A DNA stretch of 45,524 nt from Candidatus Micrarchaeia archaeon (GCA_038874185.1 JAVZCX010000002.1:1-45524); one strand, 5' to 3'; positions 1,013-45,524 are shown, counted from the stretch's first letter. Notes: generated by a model from the sequence alone, not told the origin. Numbers and translations are program-made.

Positions 1013-2158
1013 ATGCCAATAACTATTTTCCTTGAGGATGGAAAGCTTAAAGTAAAAAATCCTGAAGACTATGAAGCACTAAGAAGATCTTATTACGGAG
1101 AAAAAGGTAAAGGAGAGATAGTTATAACTCCAGAAGAGGCGATGTATCTAATAGAGGTTAGAAACGCTGTTTGCATAGAAAATGGGAAGGAGATCAGCTT
1201 CTCGCAGATAGCAGATAGATTCAATAAGGAAAAGATGTTTGCAGAATACATGACATTTCGCGATTGGAGAGAAAGAGGATTGATAATTAAAAAATACAGG
1301 AAAGAAGGCAAATATGAAAAAAATCCAACTGTAAAATACCCGAGCAAGGAAACGAAATTCCCAAAAATCCAGGCTGAGGCGATTTTCTTCAAAGACGATA
1401 AAATGGCAATATTGGAAAATGAAGAGATTGGAAAGGAGCTTTATAATAATTATTGGATCGGACAATACGGTTCATACAAGGCAGAAGGAAGAGGAAAGTT
1501 CCTAAAGTTAGATAAGTTTGAGACATATTTTCTTGTTAAGAATTGTGGGCTGAAACTGATTAATTTAACTGAAAAGGAATTGGAAAAAATATTGAAAGAA
1601 GAAAACGATTTTGAATCAATGTATAACGTGTATGAAGACTGGAGAATGAATGGATTTGTAGTGAAGACTGGCTTCAAGTTCGGAACCCATTTCAGGATAT
1701 ATTTCCCTGGTGCATTGCCAGGAAAAGGAAAGGATTGGACCCATTCAAAGCATGTTCTCCATGTATTTCCAAGAGAAAAAAGAATGATAATTGCTGAATG
1801 GGCAAGGGCAATAAGGGTTGCGCATGGAGTAAGAAAGACCTTCATACTTGCGATACCTGGAAAGAAAACAAAATCAGAAAAAGGAATGATAAGCTTCTTA
1901 TTATATCATAGAAAAAACAACAATATTGAAACACCTGAAAAGGACAGCCCCTCCTTTGCACTTGTACCTCTTAGTGAAGATGAGATGATCGGAGGGAATG
2001 AACTCGCATCTGCAATAGAAGAAGCAAAGGAGATTGGATTGGATGTCATGCTTGGAATAGTGGATAGGGAGACCTCTGTCACATATTACAGAGTTAAAAG
2101 AATAAACTTGCCTAAAAGCAAGTATGAATACTATGAAATAGAATGGGCACAGCCGTAA
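1013..2158 (+). CDS. endA: tRNA-splicing endonuclease, fused multi-unit form
   Basis: 381-aa ORF. The C-terminal half has the EndA catalytic-unit signature (VYEDWRMNGFVVKTGFKFGTHFRIY, HSKHVLHV, VRKTFILAI, VTYYRVKRI). The N-terminal half has a second, degenerate EndA-like unit (YMTFRDWRERGLIIKK). The length is more than twice the roughly 180-aa single-unit enzyme. Confidence 0.85.
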   Translation: MPITIFLEDGKLKVKNPEDYEALRRSYYGEKGKGEIVITPEEAMYLIEVRNAVCIENGKEISFSQIADRFNKEKMFAEYMTFRDWRERGLIIKKYRKEGKYEKNPTVKYPSKETKFPKIQAEAIFFKDDKMAILENEEIGKELYNNYWIGQYGSYKAEGRGKFLKLDKFETYFLVKNCGLKLINLTEKELEKILKEENDFESMYNVYEDWRMNGFVVKTGFKFGTHFRIYFPGALPGKGKDWTHSKHVLHVFPREKRMIIAEWARAIRVAHGVRKTFILAIPGKKTKSEKGMISFLLYHRKNNNIETPEKDSPSFALVPLSEDEMIGGNELASAIEEAKEIGLDVMLGIVDRETSVTYYRVKRINLPKSKYEYYEIEWAQP

Positions 2159-2195: not shown

Positions 2196-5100
2196 ATGAA
2201 CATTGGAGAAGGAATAAGAAAAGCGCTTGCAAAGATAACTGGAAAAGCGATAATAGATGAAAGTGCTGTTAAATCAATGATAAAAGAGATACAAAGAGCG
2301 CTTATACTTTCAGATGTGAATATAGAGCTAGTGTACAAGCTTTCAAAGCAGATAGAAAATCGTTCTCTTAATGAAAAACCTCCCGCTGGAAGAAGTATGA
2401 GCGAACACATCCATGCAATTGTGTATGAAGAACTCACTAAGATCATGGGGGAGGGAAGAAAGCTCGAGCTAAAACCTCAAAAGATAATGATGTGTGGATT
2501 GTTTGGAAGTGGGAAATGCATACATGGAGATTCGCTAATTCCTCTCTGTGAAGGAAATGTAATGCCAATCAAACAAGTCTATAAACAAATAGAAAAGAAT
2601 GGAAATAAAGAGGTATTAATAGATGGATATATGATACGACCAAATAAGGAATTTGAAGTTTATTCTTTTGATCCAAATACAATGAAAATTAAGAAAACAC
2701 GTATAGAAGCTGCTTGGAAACTTTATAAAGATGAATTAATCGAAGTGAGTTTAGATAATGGGAACGATCATAAGATATTGGTGACGCCAGAACATCCATT
2801 CTATACTTTAGAAGATGGAATGATAAAAGAGGTACGTGCAGAAGATCTGCAGATTGGCCAGTTTGTCGCAGTTCCAAGAAACCTTCCCTTTGATGATAAA
2901 AGATATGTTGACATGTGGGATGAAATAATTACAAATACAAACAAAGACATTGCGATCGTAGATAAAGGGATTGCATTGCAAATTAGAGAACAACTTTTGC
3001 GAAAATATGGAACTCTTATGATTGCATATCAGAAATTGAAAATAAGGGGAGCATATTGCACATTTACTGCCAACCTTAAATGGGGAATAGTCCCTATCGA
3101 ACTATTAAGAAAATGCATCAAATATGGGGTTAAAATAAGTAAGCCGACGACATTGACTGTTGCAAGAATTGGAAGAGCAGGTCCATCTAAAAAAATAAAG
3201 TTTCCATTGATTTTTTCTGAAGAATTCTCTGAATTCTTAGGCTACTTATATGCCGAAGGATACATTAGAAAAGAATATCTAGAAATGACAAATGTGGAGC
3301 CAGAGCTAATCGAAAGATTTAGTTACTTAGTAAAGAAATTATTTGATATCAAACCGCGAATTAAAAGGGACATAAGGCGATCACGACTCAAAAGAGTCAT
3401 AGTAAGTTCTAAACTATTGGTTTATCTACTTAAAATAATATTTAAAATGCCTTTGAAAAATAAAAGCAGAAAAATATCAAGTCCAATACAATTATTGAAA
3501 TCGCCTAATAATATCTTAATTTCATTTATTAAAGCATATTTCGATTCTGACGGCTGGGTTGGCGATAACACAAGAAGTATAGAGATCTCTACAGCGAGCA
3601 AAAGAATGGCGGAAGAACTTCGCTACATGTTGTTAAGATTAAATATATTTAGTGGTGTCTCTAGAAAAACAATAAATAATACAAGCTATTACCGAGTTTA
3701 TATAAGAGGATGGAGCGCAGAAAGATTCTCTAAGATAATCCTTCCGACATCTAAGAAAAAAGAAGAACGACTTAGAAATATGATCGATATTGGGAAAGGT
3801 CAAACGCCTGGGAAATTTGAACTCATCCCAGTTGGCAGACTCTTAAAAGAAACAAGAGAAGGTTGGGGCGCAACGATCGGTGAAATTCAAGAACATGTAA
3901 ATTCGTATGGAAATTACGAAAGGAATGGTGTTATAACAAGAAAATCACTGAAAAAATTCTTGGAATGTCTACCGAAACTAAAAAGAAATTGGATGACATT
4001 GATGAATATTATTTCTAATCATGGAAATAACTATGAAGAAATTATAGAAAATGCAAGAATAAATAAAGCTGTAGCTAATGCGTTTCTCTTCAGACTGTCT
4101 CAACTGGGGTATGTAAAGCAGATTCCAACTGAAAATGGTTTATTATTCATGATAACAACTACTGGTAAAGAGAAAGTAAAGGCTGTTAAAACCTTTGATG
4201 AAAATTATAAGATATTAAGGTTATTATCTGAATCAAATGTTTGTTGGATAAGGGTTGCAGGAAAGAAACATGTCAAAAATAAAGAAAAGTTTGTTTATGA
4301 TTTGACTATCAAAGAATACCACAACTTCATTGCAAATAATATGATCGTTCATAATACTACACAGATAGGCAAAATTGCACATTATCTCAAGAAAAGAGGT
4401 ATGAGCGTTGGTGTTATTGCAGCTGACATGATGAGGCCTGCAGCATATGAACAGCTTGAACAGCTTTCAAAGCAGGTAGGCTGCAACTTTTATGGAAGAA
4501 AAGGGGAAGGCGTCAAAGCTAAGGATGTTGTCAAAGAAGGTATTGAAAAGCTAAAGAATGATGTTATAATAATAGACACCTCTGGAAGAGATGCGCTTGA
4601 TGATGAACTAATAGCTGAATTGAGAGAGATAAATGAAGTTGCAAAGCCTGATGAGAGAATACTTGTAATATCAGCTGACATAGGACAGGTTGCAAAGAAG
4701 CAGGCTGAAGAATTCAATAATGCAGTTGAACTAACTGGAGTTATAATAACAAAAATGGATGGGAGCGGTAAAGGTGGTGGGGCGCTTACAGCATGTGCAA
4801 CTGCAGGCGTGAAAGTTATATTCATAGGTGTAGGAGAAAAAATAGGAGACATAGAGGAATTCAACCCATCTAAATTTGTTGGAAGGCTTTTAGGAGTACC
4901 TGACTTTGAGGCTTTGATTGAAAAAGTAAAGGCTGCAGTACCTGAAGGAATGGAAGAGATGCCTGAAGAATTCACTATTGAAACTTTCTACAAACAATTA
5001 AAGGCTGCAAGAAATATGGGTCCCTTAAAAGGACTATTTGAGACAATGGGAATGGTTAATGTGCCTAAAGAAGTTCTTGACCAAGGAGAGCAAAAAATGG

Positions 5101-5342
5101 ACCAATATGAATCAATTATAGATTCGATGACCAAGGCTGAAAGAAAGAATCCAGATCTGGTTAGAAAAAGTCCTTCAAGAATAGAAAGGATTTCCAAAGG
5201 TTCGGGTGTACCTGCTTCTGTTGTAAAGGAATTTATAACTCAATTTGGCAAGATGAAAAAGATGTATGAACAGTTACAGAAGAATAAAGGTATGCAAAGA
5301 AATCTACAAAGACTATTCAAAGGAAAAGGATTCGGTTTCTAA
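2196..5342 (+). CDS. srp54: Signal recognition particle protein SRP54, interrupted by an intein
   Basis: The N domain is followed by a G-domain P-loop, GLFGSGK / TTQIGKIAHYL, that is split by an insert. Downstream motifs are DTSGR, ITKMDGSGKGG and a Met-rich M domain. The exteins sum to 435 aa, the normal archaeal SRP54 size. Confidence 0.93.
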   Translation: MNIGEGIRKALAKITGKAIIDESAVKSMIKEIQRALILSDVNIELVYKLSKQIENRSLNEKPPAGRSMSEHIHAIVYEELTKIMGEGRKLELKPQKIMMCGLFGSGKCIHGDSLIPLCEGNVMPIKQVYKQIEKNGNKEVLIDGYMIRPNKEFEVYSFDPNTMKIKKTRIEAAWKLYKDELIEVSLDNGNDHKILVTPEHPFYTLEDGMIKEVRAEDLQIGQFVAVPRNLPFDDKRYVDMWDEIITNTNKDIAIVDKGIALQIREQLLRKYGTLMIAYQKLKIRGAYCTFTANLKWGIVPIELLRKCIKYGVKISKPTTLTVARIGRAGPSKKIKFPLIFSEEFSEFLGYLYAEGYIRKEYLEMTNVEPELIERFSYLVKKLFDIKPRIKRDIRRSRLKRVIVSSKLLVYLLKIIFKMPLKNKSRKISSPIQLLKSPNNILISFIKAYFDSDGWVGDNTRSIEISTASKRMAEELRYMLLRLNIFSGVSRKTINNTSYYRVYIRGWSAERFSKIILPTSKKKEERLRNMIDIGKGQTPGKFELIPVGRLLKETREGWGATIGEIQEHVNSYGNYERNGVITRKSLKKFLECLPKLKRNWMTLMNIISNHGNNYEEIIENARINKAVANAFLFRLSQLGYVKQIPTENGLLFMITTTGKEKVKAVKTFDENYKILRLLSESNVCWIRVAGKKHVKNKEKFVYDLTIKEYHNFIANNMIVHNTTQIGKIAHYLKKRGMSVGVIAADMMRPAAYEQLEQLSKQVGCNFYGRKGEGVKAKDVVKEGIEKLKNDVIIIDTSGRDALDDELIAELREINEVAKPDERILVISADIGQVAKKQAEEFNNAVELTGVIITKMDGSGKGGGALTACATAGVKVIFIGVGEKIGDIEEFNPSKFVGRLLGVPDFEALIEKVKAAVPEGMEEMPEEFTIETFYKQLKAARNMGPLKGLFETMGMVNVPKEVLDQGEQKMDQYESIIDSMTKAERKNPDLVRKSPSRIERISKGSGVPASVVKEFITQFGKMKKMYEQLQKNKGMQRNLQRLFKGKGFGF
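2517..4355 (+). mobile_element. Large intein (613 aa) with a LAGLIDADG homing-endonuclease domain, inserted in the SRP54 P-loop
   Basis: Starts with Cys (CIHGDSLIPL, block A) and has TPEHPF (block B TxxH). LAGLIDADG-like motifs are FLGYLYAEGYI and FIKAYFDSDGWV. Ends FVYDLTIKEYHNFIANNMIVHN, followed by a +1 Thr. Removal restores GSGKTT. Confidence 0.9.
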
Positions 5343-14121: not shown

Positions 14122-14724
14122 TTATTGCGAATCCTGTTGTTTCCTGCAGAATGTTAGATATGCAGTATGTGTGATTCCTGTATTCTGCGGTCTTGTGCCC
14201 CTTTCTCTTGAAATAATCTCTCGTATTATTACTTCTATAGTGAATGAAACGAAATTATTCTTTGCTGCTGCAGAAACAAATTTTGAGACTTGCTCTGCAT
14301 GGGGGAGATATGCAACTATGTATCCTTTTTCACTTAGCTTAAATTTTGATTCGAAAATCAGCTCTGGATTCGGCAGATCCAGATTAACAATGTCTATCTC
14401 TTCCTCTATTTTGGAGATTTCTTCAAAAACTGAACCGAACTCATGTATGATATTTGTAAGGCCTGAACGTTTTATGTTTTTTTCTGAAAAGTCATAGAAT
14501 TCTTTTTTGTTCTCGTATGAATAAACTTTTTTCGCTATGGAAGCGAAGAATACGGTTGCGAACCCGCTTCCCGTACCTGCATCAACGACTATGCTTTCCT
14601 TGTTCATTCCAGTAAATGCGACTATCGCTCCCAAATCCTTTGGAAGTATTACTTGCGGTCCACGCTTTAGCTTCTGAAGCTGGGGTGGAAACCTGAAATC
14701 ATAATTTTTCTTGCGCCTTGCCAT
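14122..14724 (-). CDS. trmI: SAM-dependent tRNA methyltransferase, TrmI/Gcd14-like
   Basis: 200 aa. PQVILPKDLGAIVAFTGM followed by VVDAGTGSGF resembles tRNA (adenine-N1)-methyltransferase. It is shorter than canonical TrmI. Confidence 0.65.
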   Translation of the reverse strand: MARRKKNYDFRFPPQLQKLKRGPQVILPKDLGAIVAFTGMNKESIVVDAGTGSGFATVFFASIAKKVYSYENKKEFYDFSEKNIKRSGLTNIIHEFGSVFEEISKIEEEIDIVNLDLPNPELIFESKFKLSEKGYIVAYLPHAEQVSKFVSAAAKNNFVSFTIEVIIREIISRERGTRPQNTGITHTAYLTFCRKQQDSQ

Positions 14725-21075: not shown

Positions 21076-22092
21076 TTATTTGCTTTTGCCGATGCCTTCT
21101 ATTGAAATGATTTTGCCTTCTATGTTAAACTGTTTTCCAGTAAACAAAGGTATTATCTCCATGCACGATCGCATGTGGCCAGTTATTTTGTTAACTTTTA
21201 TCTTTGATTCTCCACAAGCCAAAGCCATGTATATTAGAATTTGATCTCCCATCCATTGGTCTACCGCCCCTTTGGATTTCACAAGCTTGTTTAATTCTTC
21301 TGCACACGTCTTTGCTATTTTTTCAGCCTTTATTCCTTTCTCACCCAATATGCCAGAACCGATAATTGTGTTTTCATATTCCGCCCACGTGGTTATTGCA
21401 TTACCTGCTGAAGCCGAATTCCTGTTCCTCTTAGTTAGTATTATACCTGGAAATATGCTCCTTATGCTTTGTTCTTCTCTTTCCATAATCTCGTCTGGAA
21501 GATTTGACTGAGAAATTACTCCGTTTATGGATTTTAGATTTAATTTTTCAGTTATAGAGATTGGAGAAATAATGGAAGGCTTGACAAACAGGGTTACTTT
21601 CCCCTGGCCTTTTGGATACCAGCCGAATTCTTCTACCAATATTTCTGCATTTACACCCATCTTTCGAATCATAGGTAAGAATATATTTTCGAAATAATCA
21701 GTCGATGGCGAATGAGATACATGAGTTCCTCCTGTCATATTTATCTTGGAAGGTCTGTCTGCATAAAGCATCACTGGAAGAACAGATTGCATTAACAAAG
21801 GAATCGATCCTGCAGTTCCTATGTCAAATTCATAGTATCCTCCAATTATTCTATTTGGCTTGAAAAAAAGATCTGTAGATCCTACTTTGTTTCCATCTAC
21901 TTCTGCTTTTGTAATCAATGAAAGTGAATTTGTGGATGTTAGGTGCTGAGGTTGTAGTCCTGGCTTTGGCCGCTTCGCTCTTATGTTTTTAATATTGAAC
22001 GGAATCCCTGTAATACAAGAAAGTGCTAATGCAGTTCTTAAAATCTGCCCACCGCCTTCTCCTTTAGAGCCGTCTATTACAATTGGATCCAT
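21076..22092 (-). CDS. rtcA: RNA 3'-terminal phosphate cyclase
   Basis: MDPIVIDGSKGEGGGQILRTALALSCITG is the canonical RtcA N-terminus. I therefore place the start at the ATG at 22092, giving 339 aa. The ORF-track extension to 22308 is hydrophobic and non-homologous. Confidence 0.85.
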   Translation of the reverse strand: MDPIVIDGSKGEGGGQILRTALALSCITGIPFNIKNIRAKRPKPGLQPQHLTSTNSLSLITKAEVDGNKVGSTDLFFKPNRIIGGYYEFDIGTAGSIPLLMQSVLPVMLYADRPSKINMTGGTHVSHSPSTDYFENIFLPMIRKMGVNAEILVEEFGWYPKGQGKVTLFVKPSIISPISITEKLNLKSINGVISQSNLPDEIMEREEQSIRSIFPGIILTKRNRNSASAGNAITTWAEYENTIIGSGILGEKGIKAEKIAKTCAEELNKLVKSKGAVDQWMGDQILIYMALACGESKIKVNKITGHMRSCMEIIPLFTGKQFNIEGKIISIEGIGKSK

Positions 22093-22389
22093 ATAATCCA
22101 CCTTTAGTGAAAAGAAAGAGGCCAGTGCATTCGCACTGGCGAGGCGACCAATTTGAGGCAGATGTACAAAATTCGATGTACCCTCTATTAGTATAATATC
22201 TAAAAGATTTATAAATCTTACTAAAATCATTATTTTTATATAAAAAGTTTTCCTTTTAACTAGGCTTCCTATACTTCCACTAAAAATTAAAAATAAGAAT
22301 AAATTCATTTAACCCTTTCTTCAAGTATTTATGCTCTTTACGTTTGAAATGTTTTAATAGCTTTATACAATAATCTATCTGGGGATTAT

Positions 22390-23559
22390 GTGAACATGAA
22401 TAGTTTATCACATCTTTCCAAAAAGAAAGGGTCTGGTGGAAAAAGAATAAACGAACCTGAAGGTTTTATAGTAGAAGAAATTTTTAATGGAGAGAACGTA
22501 ACGGAGTTAAATCTAGAAAACGTTGACAATTCAGAATACATCACATTTGTACTTGAAAAGAAGAACCTCACAACTTACGATGCGATTCGTTTTTTATCTG
22601 ACTCTCTCAAAGTGGATGTTAAAAGGTTCAGCATTGCAGGACAGAAAGACAAGAATGCGATTACATATCAATTGGTTTCTTGCTGGAAAGGTAGAGAGAT
22701 AAGCTCTGAAAAGCTAATGGAAATAAGCAAAAAGAACCATAATATAAAGATAGCGAGGATTTGGAATACGAACTTTAAAGTAAGAATAGGCACGTTGACT
22801 GGGAATAGCTTTACAATTAGATTAACTGAAGTAGAGGACATTGGCGCTGTTGAGAGAATAATGCAAGAGAATGGAGATATCATACCGAATTATTTCGGAC
22901 CTCAGAGGTTTGGGACCAGATCTACTAATGTTGATGTAGCCAGATGCATACTGTTGAAAGATTATGAAAGCGCAATCAAGTACTTACTTAAGATTCCGGA
23001 AAATGAAAGCATCAGCGAATGCCAAGAAGCTAATGAACTTGGATTGTACGAAAAAAGAATTTCTAATTTCTTGAAGGAAAGAGGTTACGATTCTGATTCA
23101 TTCAGAAATGCAATTAAGATGATACCTGCTTCGATCCTTAAATTAATACTAGACTCTTATCAATCTTATCTTTTTAATGTTGAATTAAGTTTTAGAATTA
23201 AAAATAAACTGATGGAACCTCTTGAAAATGATAAAACATGTGGTTTTAACAGATATGGTTTTGTTGATTTAGATTCTTCTGGAAATCAGATCGTCTGCAG
23301 CCAGTTAATCGGGTATGATAGCAGACCTAATGATGTAATAAAAGACATTTTATGGGAAGAGGGAATTGAAATTGGTGATTTCAAACTGCGCGAATTCCCT
23401 GGTTTGAATCTAAATGGGTCGTGGCGTCCATTATTTGTAAATGTAAAGGATTTAAATATTAAGAAAGATAATGATGAATACGAATTAAAATTCAAACTGA
23501 CTAAAGGTGCATATGCAACTAGCTTCTTAAGAGAAATCACAGACATAAAAAGGATATAA
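22390..23559 (+). CDS. truD: tRNA pseudouridine synthase D (TruD/Pus7)
   Basis: 389 aa with AGQKDKNAIT and NYFGPQRFG motifs and the insertion-domain layout typical of TruD. Confidence 0.85.
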   Translation: MNMNSLSHLSKKKGSGGKRINEPEGFIVEEIFNGENVTELNLENVDNSEYITFVLEKKNLTTYDAIRFLSDSLKVDVKRFSIAGQKDKNAITYQLVSCWKGREISSEKLMEISKKNHNIKIARIWNTNFKVRIGTLTGNSFTIRLTEVEDIGAVERIMQENGDIIPNYFGPQRFGTRSTNVDVARCILLKDYESAIKYLLKIPENESISECQEANELGLYEKRISNFLKERGYDSDSFRNAIKMIPASILKLILDSYQSYLFNVELSFRIKNKLMEPLENDKTCGFNRYGFVDLDSSGNQIVCSQLIGYDSRPNDVIKDILWEEGIEIGDFKLREFPGLNLNGSWRPLFVNVKDLNIKKDNDEYELKFKLTKGAYATSFLREITDIKRI

Positions 23560-28443: not shown

Positions 28444-30345
28444 TTATTTTAATCTTATTGAATCCAAATCCATTGGCGCCCTTGCTTCTATTCCTAGCGT
28501 TCTTGAGATTGTATTCGAGAAATCTTCGCACTTCTTCGGCTCTCCATGATCGATCAAAATTAAAGAAGGCTTTGGTTTCATTGTTTTTATGTAATTCATT
28601 AATTGCCTTCTGTCACTGTGGCCGCTGAATCCTTCTGCTGTTTCGACTCTTAATTTTACTTGGAATGTTTCCAGTCTTCCGTCTTCTCCTACAACTGCTA
28701 CTTCCTTGTCTCCTTTTTGAATCTTTCTTCCCAAAGAATAATTGGTGTTGAAACCTACGAATATGATTGCGTTCTTTGGATCTCCTGCTAATGCCTTGAA
28801 GTATTCTACAGAAGGTCCTCCAGTCATCATACCTGATGGAGCTAGAATCACGCAAGGCTCTCCTTCTATTATCTCCTGCCTGTTTCCTTTCACTACTTCA
28901 AATATTGGGGATTCAAACGGGCTCTTTCCACTCAATATCATCCTTTGCAGGCTGTCTTTAAGATATTCTGGATAAACTGTATGTATAGCTGAAGCTTCCA
29001 GAATCATGCCGTCTATATACACTTTAAAATTGGCTTTATCTGGATTTCTTCTTGCAAATTCTTCAAATACAAGCATAATATCTTGAGATCTTCCTACAGA
29101 GAATACAGGAATTAATACTTTGCCTCCTTTTGATATTGTTTCCGTCGCAATTCTTATCACTTTCTCCTCTGCTTGAGGCCTTGGGTGATGAAAATCGTCT
29201 TTTCCACCGTATGTGCTTTCTAAAATTAAGGTTTCCACCCTTGGAAACATGTTGACTGCTGGATTAAGGAGCTTGGTATGACTGAATTTCAAATCTCCAC
29301 TATAAACTAAATTGTGCAAACCGTCGCTTATATGCAGGTGCACTATTGAGCTTCCTAATATATGGCCTGAGTTATGCAATGTAAGCTTTATTTCTGGGCT
29401 GATGTCTGTCACTTCTCCGAAATCTCTTGTTATGCAATGCAGAAGCGCCTTTCTTACATCCTTTTCTTCATAAAGTGGAGTTAATCCTTGTTTCTTCATG
29501 ACTTTGATATAGTCGAATGTTAATAAGGCCATTAGGTCCCTACTTGGAGGTGTGCAGTACACCGGACCTTCATATCCCATTGCAAAAAAGTAAGGTATGA
29601 ATCCGCAATGATCTAAATGACTATGGGAGAGAACTAGTGCGTTTATCTCATCGAATGGTATGTTCAATGTAGACACGTAGGGATAGAAGTCTTTAGCTGT
29701 ATCTGTCGCCTCAAATTTCAATCCTGAATCTAATATTATCTTATCGTTTGATGTCTCTAAGAATATGCACGACCTTCCTACTTCTTTGAAGCCACCTAAA
29801 GCTGTTATTTTAATCCATGATGTTTTTTCTACATTTGAAAATATTCTTTTTCCTGTCTTCAAAAGGAATTTCTTCCTTGTTTCTGCTTCTTTTAGCATTG
29901 TTGATCTTATGCTTTTTACTACTTCTGAAGGAAGCGTTGGAGTTCTTAAAACCTTTGGAGCCCAACCTGTTGATTTTATTATATCTTTTAAAGTTGAACC
30001 TCCTTTACCTATGACAAGACCTGGTTTGTATGCTTCAATCCATACTTCATGGAACTCTGGTGAAAAGCGTATTTCATTCACCCCTGCCTCTGGTTGTATC
30101 AATTTTGTAATTGCATCTTTCGCTTCTTCTGGCTTCATTAAAAGAGAAGGTGATGCTCTGATTATTACTTTTTTCTTTAGAGCGTTCGCTATATCTTTAA
30201 CTGGGTTGTCAAAAGCATAGAACTTTTCTATATTATCTATATATAGAATTATATCTGGTCCTTCTGCTTCTATTTTTGATATCGAACAACCAGTCGGAAT
30301 GAATTGCTCTATTTTTTTTGATATATCTGAAAGTAAGTTCTGCAT
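28444..30345 (-). CDS. aCPSF1: KH-domain beta-CASP metallo-beta-lactamase ribonuclease
   Basis: 633 aa with N-terminal KH domains (VIGKGGSTLKDI), HSHLDHCG, and beta-CASP motifs up to FSGHSDRRQL. Confidence 0.92.
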   Translation of the reverse strand: MQNLLSDISKKIEQFIPTGCSISKIEAEGPDIILYIDNIEKFYAFDNPVKDIANALKKKVIIRASPSLLMKPEEAKDAITKLIQPEAGVNEIRFSPEFHEVWIEAYKPGLVIGKGGSTLKDIIKSTGWAPKVLRTPTLPSEVVKSIRSTMLKEAETRKKFLLKTGKRIFSNVEKTSWIKITALGGFKEVGRSCIFLETSNDKIILDSGLKFEATDTAKDFYPYVSTLNIPFDEINALVLSHSHLDHCGFIPYFFAMGYEGPVYCTPPSRDLMALLTFDYIKVMKKQGLTPLYEEKDVRKALLHCITRDFGEVTDISPEIKLTLHNSGHILGSSIVHLHISDGLHNLVYSGDLKFSHTKLLNPAVNMFPRVETLILESTYGGKDDFHHPRPQAEEKVIRIATETISKGGKVLIPVFSVGRSQDIMLVFEEFARRNPDKANFKVYIDGMILEASAIHTVYPEYLKDSLQRMILSGKSPFESPIFEVVKGNRQEIIEGEPCVILAPSGMMTGGPSVEYFKALAGDPKNAIIFVGFNTNYSLGRKIQKGDKEVAVVGEDGRLETFQVKLRVETAEGFSGHSDRRQLMNYIKTMKPKPSLILIDHGEPKKCEDFSNTISRTLGIEARAPMDLDSIRLK

Positions 30346-38133: not shown

Positions 38134-38201
38134 CCAAATTATTTATTATTACAGTTAAAACCAATTAAAATCAAATCTGATTTAAAATTTAAAATAAAGG
38201 A

Positions 38202-38274
38202 TGGGGTCGCTGAGATTTGAACTCAGATCAACAGCTCCCAAAGCTGTCAGCATACCAGGTTAGCCCACGACCCC
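38202..38274 (-). tRNA. tRNA-Pro(UGG), no intron
   Basis: Reverse complement: GGGGTCG-TG-GGCT...TGCT-G-ACAGC-TTTGGGA-GCTGT-TGAT-CTGAG-TTCAAAT-CTCAG-CGACCCC-A. The D stem has 3 bp plus a U-U. Confidence 0.88.
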
Positions 38275-38343
38275 ATATGGCAACAGAAGAACAATATTAA
38301 TATATATAGGTAGATTACTTTTTTAAACTATTATGAAACATAT

Positions 38344-41811: not shown

Positions 41812-41832
41812 GTTTGAACGAAAGACACGAAG
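41812..41832 (-). repeat. 3' strand of the 23S rRNA processing stem
   Basis: gtttgaacgaaagacacgaag is the perfect reverse complement of 45081..45101. The two arms bracket the 23S gene. Confidence 0.8.
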
Positions 41833-42238
41833 AAATTTGTGAGTAAGGAGATTTAGTATCAGCTGGCTCGCAGCTCGCGTAAGCTCGCTGCTTACACCAC
41901 TGACCTATCAAACGGGTCTGCTACCCGCTCTCACGTCTGCCTAGTTTTGGGCAATCCTTCGACCTTAGATGCTTTCAGGTCTTATGATTTGGCGCGTGGC
42001 TGCCCGGCAATGCTTTTTACAACCGGTATACTAGAGGCGCCCGTCCCATGTTCCTCTCGTACTAGTGGGGCGCTCCCCTCAGGCAGATGCAATCCTAGTA
42101 GATACTACCGTACTGTCTCGCGACGTACTGAACCCAACTCGTGTATCTCTTTAATGGATGAACAAACCAACCCTTGGGCGCTCCTGCACGCCCAGGATGA
42201 GATAGGTCGACAGCGATGTACCAAGCCGCGGGGTCGAT

Positions 42239-42283
42239 ATGTACGCGACAGACTAGCGTTCTAACGAAGACTAAGCTGTCGCA
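42239..42283 (-). other. 45-nt insertion at the tip of 23S helix 89 with BHB geometry (putative mini-intron)
   Basis: RNA sense: CGA-GA-GTAC-[CCT]-GCGACAG...CTGTCGC-GTAC-[ATA]-TCG. A 4-bp central helix is flanked by two 3-nt bulges on opposite strands. Removal gives a loop of the same length as the E. coli GAGUUCAUAUCGAC segment. Confidence 0.6.
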
Positions 42284-42309
42284 GGGTACTCTCGCCCGCG
42301 ACGAGCCTG

Positions 42310-42406
42310 TTTTGGGTCTTCACAGCTACAGAAAAGGACAACAAAAATACGATATGAAATATCGGAGAGGAGTGTATGTCCAGGTGATGTGGTGCAACTG
42401 AGAAGA
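42310..42406 (-). other. About 95-97-nt insertion inside the peptidyl-transferase ring sequence GGGAUAAC of 23S (putative intron; boundaries within about 3 nt)
   Basis: RNA sense: ACCTCGGGGGTAA|TCTTCTCAG...CTGTGAAGACCCAAAA|CAGGCTCG, against E. coli CUCCGGGGAUAACAGGCUG. The flanks pair as GGGT-[AAT]-CTTCTCAG / CTGTGAAG-ACCC. Confidence 0.6.
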
Positions 42407-42533
42407 TTACCCCCGAGGTAACTTGTCTGACAGACTGAGCCCTTAACAAAAGGATTTCAGTGTTCGTTAAGCCCGGCTTTCGCCTCTGCGTCCCACGCTT
42501 TTAAGAACACAGTCAGCCCTGCATTTCTCTTTA

Positions 42534-42694
42534 ACCGTCTTCACCCGACGTTCAGTGGCCGCACGATGATATGCGTCATTCGCTGTTCAACCTCATCACT
42601 AAATCGCACTAGGATTGTGCAATGCGTTTACAACGCATGCACATTCGTCCGCAAGACGAATTGTGCGTCAGAGGTTGTTCATTATATCATCCGC
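42534..42694 (-). other. About 161-nt structured insertion in 23S domain V (intron or expansion segment)
   Basis: Lies between CATGGTG and TAAAGAGAAATGCAGGGCTGACTG, which are contiguous in E. coli (UUAGUG|CAAUGGCAUAAGCCAGCUUGACUG). Its core is closed by the 8-bp stem GATGATAT/ATATCATC (42684..42691 / 42565..42572), with nested helices CAACCTC/GAGGTTG and CGCAC/GTGCG and two hairpins. Confidence 0.5.
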
Positions 42695-45080
42695 CACCAT
42701 GCGGTCATTTCTGACCGGGTTGAGCAGAGCTTTGGGCGCCCTTATTTCCTTATTGAGGGCGTACTGCCCCAGCCAAACTATCCACCTGCCGCTGTCCCCT
42801 TTCAGGTAAGAAACACAAGGATTGAAGAGTGGTGTTACACTTTTGCATCCACCTCAGCCGCAACCGAGGTTTCTACGCTCCCACTTACGCTCTGCAACAA
42901 TCCCTGAATTCCAACAACAGGCTATAGTAAAGTTCTACGGGGTCTTCGTTTCCCACTAGGATTCCTCCGCATATTCACGGAGCAGTGAGTTCACTAGGTC
43001 CCTCGTTGGGACAGTGGGAGAGTCGTTATGCCCTTCATGCAAGTCGCCAATTAAGCGACGAGGTATTACGCTACCTTAAGAGGATCAGAGTTATCCCCGC
43101 TCTTCGCCAGCCCTTAAATCCCTTGGACGAGATGTTCGGGTACTGGTAGTGAGCAGGCATCGGCAACCATACAAGACGTTTCCATTTTGCGGTTACCTGT
43201 GTTTTTGATAAACAGTCGCTCTCCCCTTGTTACTGAGACCTGCACATGCACCTTAAGATACAAGCGCAGGCAACCCTTATACCGAAGATACGGGTCTAAT
43301 TTGCCGAATTCCCTGACGAGAGTTCCCCTAACACGCCTAAGCTTTTTCAGCTAGCCACACTTGTACTAGTTCTAGGTACGGTCATAATGGATCGGATAGG
43401 ACCACTTTTCACGGATCCAAGGTCTCAACAGAACCCCCAAACGAGGGCTATTCGCGCCTTATACTGCTTCTCCTCATAACGAGACTCCACAGCACTATGT
43501 CGCTTGAACAAGGTCTCCCTTGCTCTGCCTAACCTCAGATGTCATGTTCCTACCTTGCGTTGCCGCGTCTACCACTATGGTACAGGAATATTAACCTGTT
43601 TCCCATTCGTCCCCTAGTAATTAGCTGGGGCCTTAGGACCGACTAACTCTTGGCTGACAAACGTTGCCAAGAAAACCGTGGGCTTTCGGCGTACTGGATT
43701 CTCACCAGTATTTGCTGCTACTAACTCCAGGATATTTATTGCAATACAGTCCATTGGAGCTCACGCCCCAACTTCTCTCTGTACCGCACACCTCCCTACC
43801 GGATCACACCTTTCGGGTGTGCCCTTGGGTCTCAGCATCCAGCTTTAGTCCCGTACATTTTCGGCCTGTATATTTCTCCCAACAAAGTTGGTGTCGAACG
43901 GTCCGCTATTACGCGTTGCTTAGACGATGGCTGCTTCTAAGCCTACGTCCCGTCTGTCTAGAAATACACATTCCTTGTGTCTTCACACTTAGCTGGAGTT
44001 TAGGGGCTTTAACCCAAGACTCGTTCGTTCACGTCACGGCTCGTCAGCTTACCCGACGAAACCCGACTCCCTGCTTCTACGATGATTGTAGATTCGGAGT
44101 TTGACAAGAAAGCAGGCTCTTTCGAACCTATTCTTTCTAATCAGTGCTCTACCCCACAATCCATCTCCACAAGGGTCATCCTGAGGGATGCTTCGGGAGG
44201 AACCCGCTATCGCAATGCTCGATTGGACTTTCACCCCTACACAGAAGTCACCTAAGCAGATATACTAGCACTAGTTGCGGCCCTCCACCAGTCGTTAGAC
44301 CGGCTTCAGCCTGCTTCAGTGTAGATCGCAACCGTTTCGGGTCAGATAATAGTGACTAAACGCACTTTCGTACGATGCGCCTCGTTCAGCACTGCGCGCA
44401 ATCGCTTTCGCTTCGCCTCTCGGCTCGCCACTAATATCTACTCCCTGGATCTTGATTCGAGAAGTACGATACGATACTGGTCCAGAACCATCGTACAACA
44501 GCATTGCTGCTGCTTCCTTTTGATTCCTTCGTCCCTTTCATACCGTATCAACCTGTGACCATTCAGTTTCAGGCACTTTTAACACCCATTTCTGGGTTCT
44601 TTTCAACGTTCGCTCACGCTACTAATCCGCTATCGGTCTTGGCTACCTGTTTAGAATTGGATGTTGCTCCACCCAAATTCATACTGGATTACCAACCAGT
44701 ATTACTCTTTTCGTCTCCCTCCTCCACCTTTTGCTTACGGGGCTGTCACCCTGTTTCGCACAGCATTCCAGCTGACTTCAGCTCCAGTAAAGGATGGTTG
44801 AGACGCCCACATCTCCTATACATTACTGCACAGGATTCAGTTTGTTCTCTCCGGCTTTCGCTCGCCGTTACTTACCGGATCCCAATTGGTTTCTCTTCCT
44901 GCGGCTACTAAGATGTTTCAATTCACCGCGTGTTTACCTGTCTCCAGGCACACAGAGATCGACGGATCAATGCTTGCTTGCAGCTACCCGTCGCTTATCG
45001 CAGCTTGCCACGTCTGCTTGAAAACCAAGCCTGGCCATCCCCTGAATGGCGTAGCACTCACAAATACAGTGTTATCACTG

Positions 45081-45101
45081 CTTCGTGTCTTTCGTTCAAA
45101 C
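45081..45101 (-). repeat. 5' strand of the 23S rRNA processing stem
   Basis: cttcgtgtctttcgttcaaac pairs perfectly (21 bp) with 41812..41832. The hairpin CAGTG-ATAA-CACTG (45066..45080) lies between this stem and 23S helix 1. Confidence 0.8.
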
Positions 45102-45160
45102 TTATATTCGCATGATGCACGCATCATCCATTCGGAAGACGCGCTATGGACTCGGCGTGA

Positions 45161-45192
45161 ATTACGCACAGCCTCCCTTTAGGAGACCACGT
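45161..45192 (-). other. tRNA-Ala intron 2, 32 nt, non-canonical position 59/60 in the T loop
   Basis: GCGTG-TTCG-[AAA]-CGTGGTCTCC-TAAAG-GGAGGCTGTG-CGTA-[ATT]-CACGC. Cutting after the second nucleotide of each bulge yields the T loop TTCGAAT. Confidence 0.75.
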
Positions 45193-45214
45193 TTCGAACA
45201 CGCAGCCTCCTCCT

Positions 45215-45288
45215 ATCTTGGAAACTTTCTTATAAAGAAAGTTTCATCAAAGAAGTTCTTGATGAAACTTCTTTCCTAAGAAGTTTCT
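45215..45288 (-). other. tRNA-Ala intron 1, 74 nt, canonical position 37/38
   Basis: Canonical hBHBh' motif: CCTCC-TTTG-[CAA]-GAAAC...GTTTC-CAAG-[ATA]-GGAGG. The intron body contains three near-perfect hairpins. Confidence 0.85.
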
Positions 45289-45440
45289 TGCAAAGGAGGC
45301 GCTCTACCATTGAGCTACGAGCCCATGATCTATACTTCAGAATTCAATTACAACATTCCGTGCCTTGCTTGATGCGCTATGATTATAATTCATAACGAAA
45401 TGGAATTGTGCACACTTGAAACCAATTTAATTAATAAATT

Positions 45441-45524
45441 GGAGGTGATCTATCCGCAGGTTCCCCTACGGATACCTTGTTACGACTTAGCCCCCCTCAT
45501 AAAAACTTGGCTCGATACCATCAG
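45441..45524 (-). rRNA. rrs: 16S rRNA gene, 3' end only (continues beyond the window)
   Basis: The reverse complement reads ...AAGTCGTAACAAGGTATCCGTAGGGGAACCTGCGGATAGATCACCTCC, the universal SSU 3' terminus. Confidence 0.92.

Follow-up and report, generated by a model that had tools for sequence, protein, structure and literature searches.

A spacer tRNA-Ala(UGC) gene with introns in the anticodon loop and the T loop in a Micrarchaeota rRNA operon

Organization of the rRNA operon and of its spacer tRNA

The 45,524-nt stretch of DNA analyzed here, referred to below as the window, ends within an rRNA operon located on the minus strand. The 3' end of the 16S rRNA gene, which is cut by the window edge, occupies positions 45440..45524 and matches model positions 1394-1478 of Rfam SSU_rRNA_archaea. 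It is followed by the 3' strand of the 16S processing stem (45331..45377), which pairs with the 16S 5' flank of L002, a relative with 99% identity, and then by a tRNA-Ala(UGC) gene (45147..45324). The 5' strand of the 23S processing stem (45081..45101) comes next and forms a perfect 21-bp duplex with the 3' strand (41812..41832). Between these two strands lies the 23S rRNA gene (41834..45066), identified by Rfam LSU_rRNA_archaea with 2342.7 bits (model positions 1-2987 over 3233 nt). The tRNA gene is thereby enclosed by the two stems, with the 16S stem strand ending 7 nt upstream of it and the 23S stem strand beginning 45 nt downstream. Since the 16S processing-stem strand ends so close to the tRNA, it is very likely, given the stem strands on either side, that 16S, tRNA and 23S are transcribed together.

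The tRNA-Ala gene has a precursor of 178 nt and is split into three exons, all on the minus strand. Exon 1 (45289..45324, 36 nt, GGGCTCGTAGCTCAATGGTAGAGCGCCTCCTTTGCA) contains the acceptor 5' strand, the D arm, the 5' strand of the anticodon stem and the anticodon loop up to A37. Intron 1 (45215..45288, 74 nt) follows at the canonical position 37/38. Exon 2 (45193..45214, 22 nt, AGGAGGAGGCTGCGTGTTCGAA) contributes A38, the 3' strand of the anticodon stem, the variable loop, the 5' strand of the T stem and the T loop up to A59. Intron 2 (45161..45192, 32 nt) interrupts the T loop at position 59/60, and exon 3 (45147..45160, 14 nt, TCACGCCGAGTCCA) supplies T60, the T-stem 3' strand, the acceptor 3' strand with U70, and the discriminator A73. 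CCA is not encoded, A73 being followed by TAG.

ARAGORN calls no tRNA in the unspliced precursor. When the exons are joined, the resulting 72-mer is recognized as tRNA-Ala(tgc) with a perfect cloverleaf, an anticodon loop of TTTGCAA and a T loop of TTCGAAT. The spliced sequence also carries G3:U70, A73 and an alanine anticodon, as expected of a tRNA-Ala. If only insert 2 is deleted by hand, the intron mode of the same program locates intron 1 by itself, as i(37,74). A first-pass annotation of this DNA had proposed that a tRNA-Ala(UGC) in the spacer is interrupted by introns twice, once within the T loop. The existence of such a gene in a Micrarchaeota spacer is confirmed, and the coordinates, sequences and junctions given for it were correct, as were the two mature loops and the G3:U70 pair; the tRNA finder behaves as this model predicts, being blind to the precursor and responsive to the spliced form. 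The other four tRNAs of the window contain no introns, again in agreement with what had been noted.

With the Rfam tRNA model, the precursor scores 21.2 bits against a gathering score of 29. A natural relative without insert 1 reaches 38.0 bits, 17 bits above the window gene, so the covariance-model score does rise upon loss of an insert, as had been anticipated; the gain was measured on this natural intron-1-less allele, and the fully spliced form was judged by ARAGORN. Since standard finders (ARAGORN and Rfam) miss the gene in the window, Micrarchaeota genomes may seem to lack tRNA-Ala(UGC) when the gene resides in the rRNA spacer, a point of relevance for annotation.

Excision motifs and their conservation in related loci

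Intron 1 is framed by a strict bulge-helix-bulge motif (hBHBh'), in which two 3-nt bulges on opposite strands are separated by 4 bp (3-4-3). The central helix TTTG/CAAG consists of one U:G and three Watson-Crick pairs, the bulges are CAA and ATA, exactly as described in the first-pass annotation, and the helix h' (GAAAC/GTTTC) extends to 7 bp.

The motif of intron 2 is less regular. In the window, TTCG/CGTA forms three pairs and a U55•U mismatch at the second position, with bulges AAA and ATT and an h' helix (CGTGG/CTGTG) rich in G:U pairs. The earlier description of a 4-bp helix therefore does not stand for this intron, although its junction and its bulges do. When the cloverleaf stems are enforced in ViennaRNA, the local fold has an energy of -71.5 kcal/mol, compared to -66.5 with TTCG/CGTA forced, a penalty of about 5 kcal/mol. 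On the basis of this predicted folding, intron 2 of the window would count as a relaxed bulge-helix-bulge motif. In the unconstrained minimum-energy fold of the precursor (-78.7), a strand of the anticodon stem pairs with intron 2 and no cloverleaf is formed.

This exchange of partners concerns the intron 2 hairpin and the anticodon stem. In the window clade, the hairpin UCUCC/GGGAG of the T-loop intron (45161..45192) resembles the anticodon stem CCUCC/GGAGG (45295..45299 and 45209..45213). The resemblance is probably incidental, since it is not conserved in the other clades.

Relatives of the locus were collected by exact-match scans with exon 1, which returned 6 loci from species-representative genomes and 13 metagenome contigs. 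Five of the six species-representative loci are labeled Micrarchaeota or Micrarchaeia, and the sixth is a 2.3-kb contig labeled Hadarchaeum. Two further genomes (L020 and L024, with identical tRNA-Ala genes) were found through the geranylgeranyl reductase gene that adjoins the 23S gene. In L021, L022 and L023 this reductase gene has no adjacent rRNA, the gene order being kept only in the close relatives L020 and L024. L025 and L026 were left out of the comparison, as their upstream DNA is too short to reach the spacer. In total, 20 related loci were compared. The contig filed under Candidatus Hadarchaeum (L004, NZ_JBMFOX010000087.1) has a spacer and tRNA-Ala nearly identical to those of Micrarchaeota and a 23S that is 93% identical; its label is probably a binning error.

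The exons are conserved to a very high degree. In 18 loci all three are identical; a T-stem change is added in L016, and three changes in L020/L024. Exon 1 is identical in 19 related loci, and in L020/L024 it carries C6->U and C28->U, which are compensated in exons 3 and 2, respectively. Seven exon substitutions occur in all, and six of them fall into three compensatory pairs: C6:G67 to U:A, which spans both introns, C28:G42 to U:A, which spans intron 1, and U52:A62 to C:G, which spans intron 2. The seventh lies in the D loop. In the spliced alignment, standard pairs fill 63 of 63 cells, and G3:U70 is invariant.

The inserts behave very differently. Intron 1, 74 nt in the window, measures 73, 46, 42, 82, 86 or 81 nt in relatives and is absent from 9 loci, where exon 1 is fused to exon 2 exactly at TTTGCA|AGGAGG. 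Intron 2 is present in all complete copies, with lengths of 31-32, 52, 58, 61-63 or 76 nt and sequences that are largely unrelated between clades. The recurrence of the same exons around inserts of varied length and sequence in 20 loci is far beyond chance, and because the exons stay nearly invariant while the inserts vary or vanish precisely, the inserts are best described as removable introns. It could be argued that the gene is instead a decaying tRNA relic whose matching pieces are mere leftovers, as its invisibility to standard tRNA finders might suggest. We give this reading practically no credence, given exons that are invariant or changed in a compensatory manner next to freely diverging inserts, and intact identity elements.

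Pairing at the excision sites is also maintained. The core of the intron 1 motif is 97.9% paired across 6 distinct sequences, and its h' helix contains 3 compensatory pairs (e.g. GAAAC/GTTTC versus GAGCTT/AAGCTC); pairing drops to about 70% when the partner strand is shifted by one column. For intron 2, pairing reaches 85.7% in the core and 90.6% in the central helix (8 distinct sequences). The partner of U55 varies by clade: the window clade has U, L005, L010 and L015 have G, and L007 and L008 have A. Outside the window clade, perfect TTCG/CGAA helices with bulges of 3 nt occur at this 59/60 site, and in the L008 group a strict 3-4-3 motif at intron 2 folds unaided.

These comparisons bear on the exact register of the T-loop junction. 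From the window sequence alone, the pair of cuts can be shifted by one nucleotide, and the relaxed motif pins the bulges only loosely, so that a junction at 58/59 or 60/61, with a mature loop of UUCGAUU or UUCGAAA, has to be considered. Such a register is nonetheless very unlikely. TTCGAAT is the sole mature T loop that can be obtained in all clades (L007 and L012 yield it in all three registers), and the 3-4-3 rule points to 59/60. Because this loop alone is possible in every clade, the cuts that release intron 2 of the window are placed at 45193|45192 and 45161|45160, that is, at 59/60.

The two introns have different histories. Every complete copy retains the T-loop intron, even where 23S identity falls to about 74%, and three clades lack the anticodon-loop intron; this picture of a universal T-loop intron and a variable anticodon-loop intron comes from the present analysis. 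In a neighbour-joining tree based on 830 nt of 23S, intron 1 is found in two clades, one containing the window and its closest relatives and the other containing L005, L015 and L019. Each of them is sister to a clade without intron 1, and the outgroup L016 also lacks it. The intron 1 sequences of both clades are evidently related. Most simply, the tree would reflect a single gain and then two or three precise losses, or else transfer between lineages. The related loci form a clean natural series for intron gain and loss, in which the T-loop intron is ancient and never lost, and intron 1 and the 23S insert described below come and go.

Other classes of element were considered for the inserts. 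No group I or group II intron was matched by Rfam in the two inserts (74 and 32 nt) at either the gathering or a permissive threshold. A box C/D guide RNA within the introns, of the kind encoded by the euryarchaeal tRNA-Trp intron with its C box (RUGAUGA) and D box (CUGA), was also rejected. CTGA is absent from both introns, and the only snoRNA match is noise (E = 3.5); the one TGATGA present forms one side of a hairpin and is missing from the 42-nt version of L001.

Splicing endonuclease and predicted processing of the operon transcript

A gene for a tRNA-splicing endonuclease is located at 1013..2158 on the plus strand of the window. The product contains the Pfam domains tRNA_int_endo_N and tRNA_int_endo and is of the ε2 (three-unit) type of EndA, a single chain with αN, α and βC units. 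Its residues 11-381 align with residues 13-387 of the ARMAN-2 EndA structure (PDB 4FZ2) over the full length (E = 8e-123). The catalytic triad of the ARMAN-2 enzyme (Y236, H251 and K282) corresponds to Y230, H244 and K275 in the window protein, and the RNA contacts R275 and W384 correspond to R268 and W378. K161 of the specific loop, which confers cleavage of relaxed T-loop motifs, is represented by K156 within GSYKAEGR. These key residues were identified in ARMAN-2 EndA, where K161 is required for cutting of the relaxed motif at 59/60 (Hirata et al. 2012, PMC3488258), and the ARMAN-2 ε2 enzyme cuts both strict 37/38 and relaxed 59/60 substrates in vitro (Fujishima et al. 2011, PMC3239211). 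From the ε2 homology and the conserved residues, the product of 1013..2158, which the first-pass annotation had put forward for cleavage assays, is the likely enzyme for both introns, and it would be expected to act as a homodimer with broad specificity.

The weak central helix predicted for intron 2 in the window clade raises the question of whether EndA excises this insert, as it could instead stay in the tRNA, enlarging the T arm, or be eliminated by some other activity. We consider this extremely improbable. Other clades have the perfect helix with 3-nt bulges at the same site, the in vitro cleavage at 59/60 by an ε2 enzyme provides a precedent, and the insert sequence is not conserved, as would be the case for a spacer that is spliced out.

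Excision by EndA remains the preferred reading for both inserts. The region 45147..45324 (minus strand) is thus, with high confidence, a functional spacer tRNA-Ala(UGC) with two protein-spliced bulge-helix-bulge introns, contained in a 16S-tRNA-23S precursor and cut by EndA; the cleavage, the ligation, the order of the steps and the co-transcription are predicted from sequence. The tRNA would be made within the common 16S-tRNA-23S transcript. The ε2 endonuclease (1013..2158), acting as a homodimer, would then cut within the 3-nt bulges of the strict motif at 37/38 and of the relaxed motif at 59/60, leaving 2',3'-cyclic phosphate and 5'-OH ends. The three exons would be ligated by an RNA ligase, presumably of the RtcB type and encoded outside the window, and the tRNA ends would be trimmed by RNase P and RNase Z. 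CCA would be added afterwards, since the gene does not encode it.

No gene for an RNA ligase (RtcB) is present in the window. Other RNA-processing genes are located at 21076..22308 (minus strand), 22390..23559 (plus strand), 14122..14724 (minus strand) and 28444..30345 (minus strand): those for RNA 3'-phosphate cyclase RtcA, pseudouridine synthase TruD, a GCD14/TrmI-like tRNA methyltransferase of the m1A58 family, whose target adjoins the 59/60 intron site, and the aCPSF1/FttA nuclease.

The 23S rRNA gene of the window contains a further intron-like insert of 97 nt (42311..42407, minus strand), removal of which restores GGGGGTAACAGGCTC as in relatives that lack the insert. It is located at the site GGGGGUA|ACAGG, which we take to be the peptidyl-transferase A2450/A2451 region (E. 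coli numbering). An insert is precisely absent from this site in L008, L009, L011, L016 and L018, and inserts of 97-347 nt are found there in L001, L003, L005, L006, L007 and L012. The ends of the window insert fold as GGG[TAA]TCTTC...GAAGA CCC(A)[AAA], which has the appearance of a relaxed bulge-helix-bulge. This insert is probably an endonuclease-spliced rRNA intron and, as such, a third substrate in the operon. The primary rRNA transcript therefore probably contains at least three substrates of one broad-specificity endonuclease, which would make it a convenient test object.

Another insert in the 23S gene (42621..42666, minus strand, 46 nt) is found only in the window; even relatives whose 23S is 95-96% identical lack it. 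A direct repeat of 7 nt (GCACAAT) borders the insert, which contains two hairpins. A fourth intron was rejected at this position, as the insert has no bulge-helix-bulge or clear splice motif; a recent duplication or expansion may account for it.

The first-pass annotation had concluded that maturation of the rRNA operon and tRNA splicing are coupled. Such a coupling is plausible. The tight placement of the tRNA between the stems, the universal T-loop intron and the 97-nt 23S insert speak for it; a canonical 3-4-3 motif, looked for in both processing stems, was not found, which speaks against a simple picture. The idea is not new, because a role of the archaeal splicing endonuclease in pre-rRNA processing is already established (PMC7714728).

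A stronger form of this idea would make the T-loop intron a checkpoint. The intron would block the elbow of the tRNA, forcing RNase P and RNase Z to wait for splicing and so gating the separation of pre-16S and pre-23S. Both nucleases generally depend on the elbow formed by the T loop and the D loop. If the proposal were true, selection would keep the T-loop intron throughout the clade, and splicing would set the order of release of pre-16S and pre-23S. The wedging of the tRNA between two processing stems fits the proposal, as does the presence of the T-loop intron in every complete copy down to about 74% 23S identity, alongside loss of the anticodon-loop intron in three clades. It is also in line with the processing stems, as no canonical 3-4-3 bulge-helix-bulge was found in the 23S stem of the window or the 16S stem of L002. 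However, these stems may contain relaxed motifs that were not recognized, and retention of the intron could also result from chance or from the lack of a mechanism for its loss. On balance, we regard such a checkpoint as rather unlikely.

Both processing stems (45065..45101 with 41812..41835 for 23S, and the 16S flanks of L002) consist of a long duplex followed by a 16-nt, hairpin-bearing insert in the 5' strand. These inserts are CAGTGATAACACTGTA for 23S and CACTCGCAAAGAGTAA for 16S, and each lies opposite 2-3 unpaired bases.

Comparison with known systems

A spacer tRNA-Ala(UGC) is known from euryarchaeal 16S-23S operons, where it is freed from the rRNA precursor by RNase P and RNase Z. The window gene is the same gene in the same place between 16S and 23S. 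The euryarchaeal copies are, to our knowledge, without introns. In plastids and cyanobacteria, the trnA(UGC) of the rrn spacer contains a group II or group I intron of hundreds of nucleotides that is self-splicing or maturase-assisted. These genes resemble the one described here in being an intron-bearing tRNA-Ala(UGC) of an rRNA operon, with splicing as part of operon maturation. They differ in the nature of the introns, which in the window are 74 and 32 nt long, have bulge-helix-bulge ends and match no group I or group II model of Rfam.

Thermoproteales and other Crenarchaeota usually have, as far as we know, no spacer tRNA in the rRNA operon, and their endonuclease has an (αβ)2 architecture, in contrast to the ε2 type found here. 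They are similar in that a single gene can contain as many as three introns of the endonuclease type, at non-canonical sites whose motifs are often relaxed (PMC3239211); an overlap between the ARMAN-2 intron sites and the main insertion sites in these species is also noted there. The broad specificity of the crenarchaeal enzyme was, according to the authors of the ARMAN-2 EndA study, acquired independently by means of a Crenarchaea-specific loop (PMC3488258).

The closest parallel is ARMAN-2 (Ca. Micrarchaeum acidiphilum), in which 56% of the tRNA genes are disrupted, with introns at 59/60 and multi-intron tRNAs (Fujishima et al. 2011, PMC3239211). A tRNA-Pro of this archaeon contains two T-loop introns, and the disruption has been tied to the ε2 enzyme (PMC3239211). 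ARMAN-2 shares with the window the phylum, the type of enzyme, the 37/38 and 59/60 sites, the mixture of strict and relaxed motifs and the occurrence of more than one intron per gene. It may differ with respect to the host gene, here the tRNA-Ala(UGC) located in the spacer of the rRNA operon. The arrangement had been called unusual for a DPANN-like genome in the first-pass annotation. That assessment does not hold, as the relatives are Micrarchaeota, a phylum in which such introns and their enzyme have been known since 2011 (PMC3239211). The mechanism is one already known for Micrarchaeota, and nothing is changed in our understanding of archaeal splicing. What is established here is the anatomy of the gene, its exact junctions, the pattern of conservation and the presence of the enzyme gene. 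A literature search of incomplete coverage returned no account of introns in a spacer tRNA-Ala from an archaeon.

Introns are also known in the rRNA genes of Micrarchaeota (Nawrocki et al. 2018, PMC6125680). Archaeal rRNA introns are comparable to the 97-nt 23S insert of the window, with its bulge-helix-bulge-like ends, and to the long 16S and 23S inserts of relatives; they differ from the spacer introns in that their host is rRNA rather than tRNA. The 16S genes of relatives are far longer than the 1478-position model, with hits of 2141 and 2263 nt (L001 352..3500, L002 2411..4551 and L020 3907..6003). L020 and L001 have a large insert near the 16S 3' end, which in L020 contains an ORF of 180 aa that has no significant match in Pfam. 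Micrarchaeota have been reported to carry group I introns at SSU/1498 (Nawrocki et al. 2018, PMC6125680), and Rfam matched no group I intron in L001, L002 or L020.

Two other features of the window may be mentioned. The SRP54 gene (2196..5342, plus strand) is interrupted by an intein that includes a homing-endonuclease domain of the LAGLIDADG type (Pfam Intein_splicing 143-720 and LAGLIDADG_3). The tRNA-Pro(UGG) gene (38199..38275, minus strand) is 77 nt long according to ARAGORN, with an irregular D arm containing a mismatch and a G:U pair, and 73 nt according to Rfam; the D arm of ARMAN-2 tRNA-Pro has a single Watson-Crick pair (Fujishima et al. 2011, PMC3239211).
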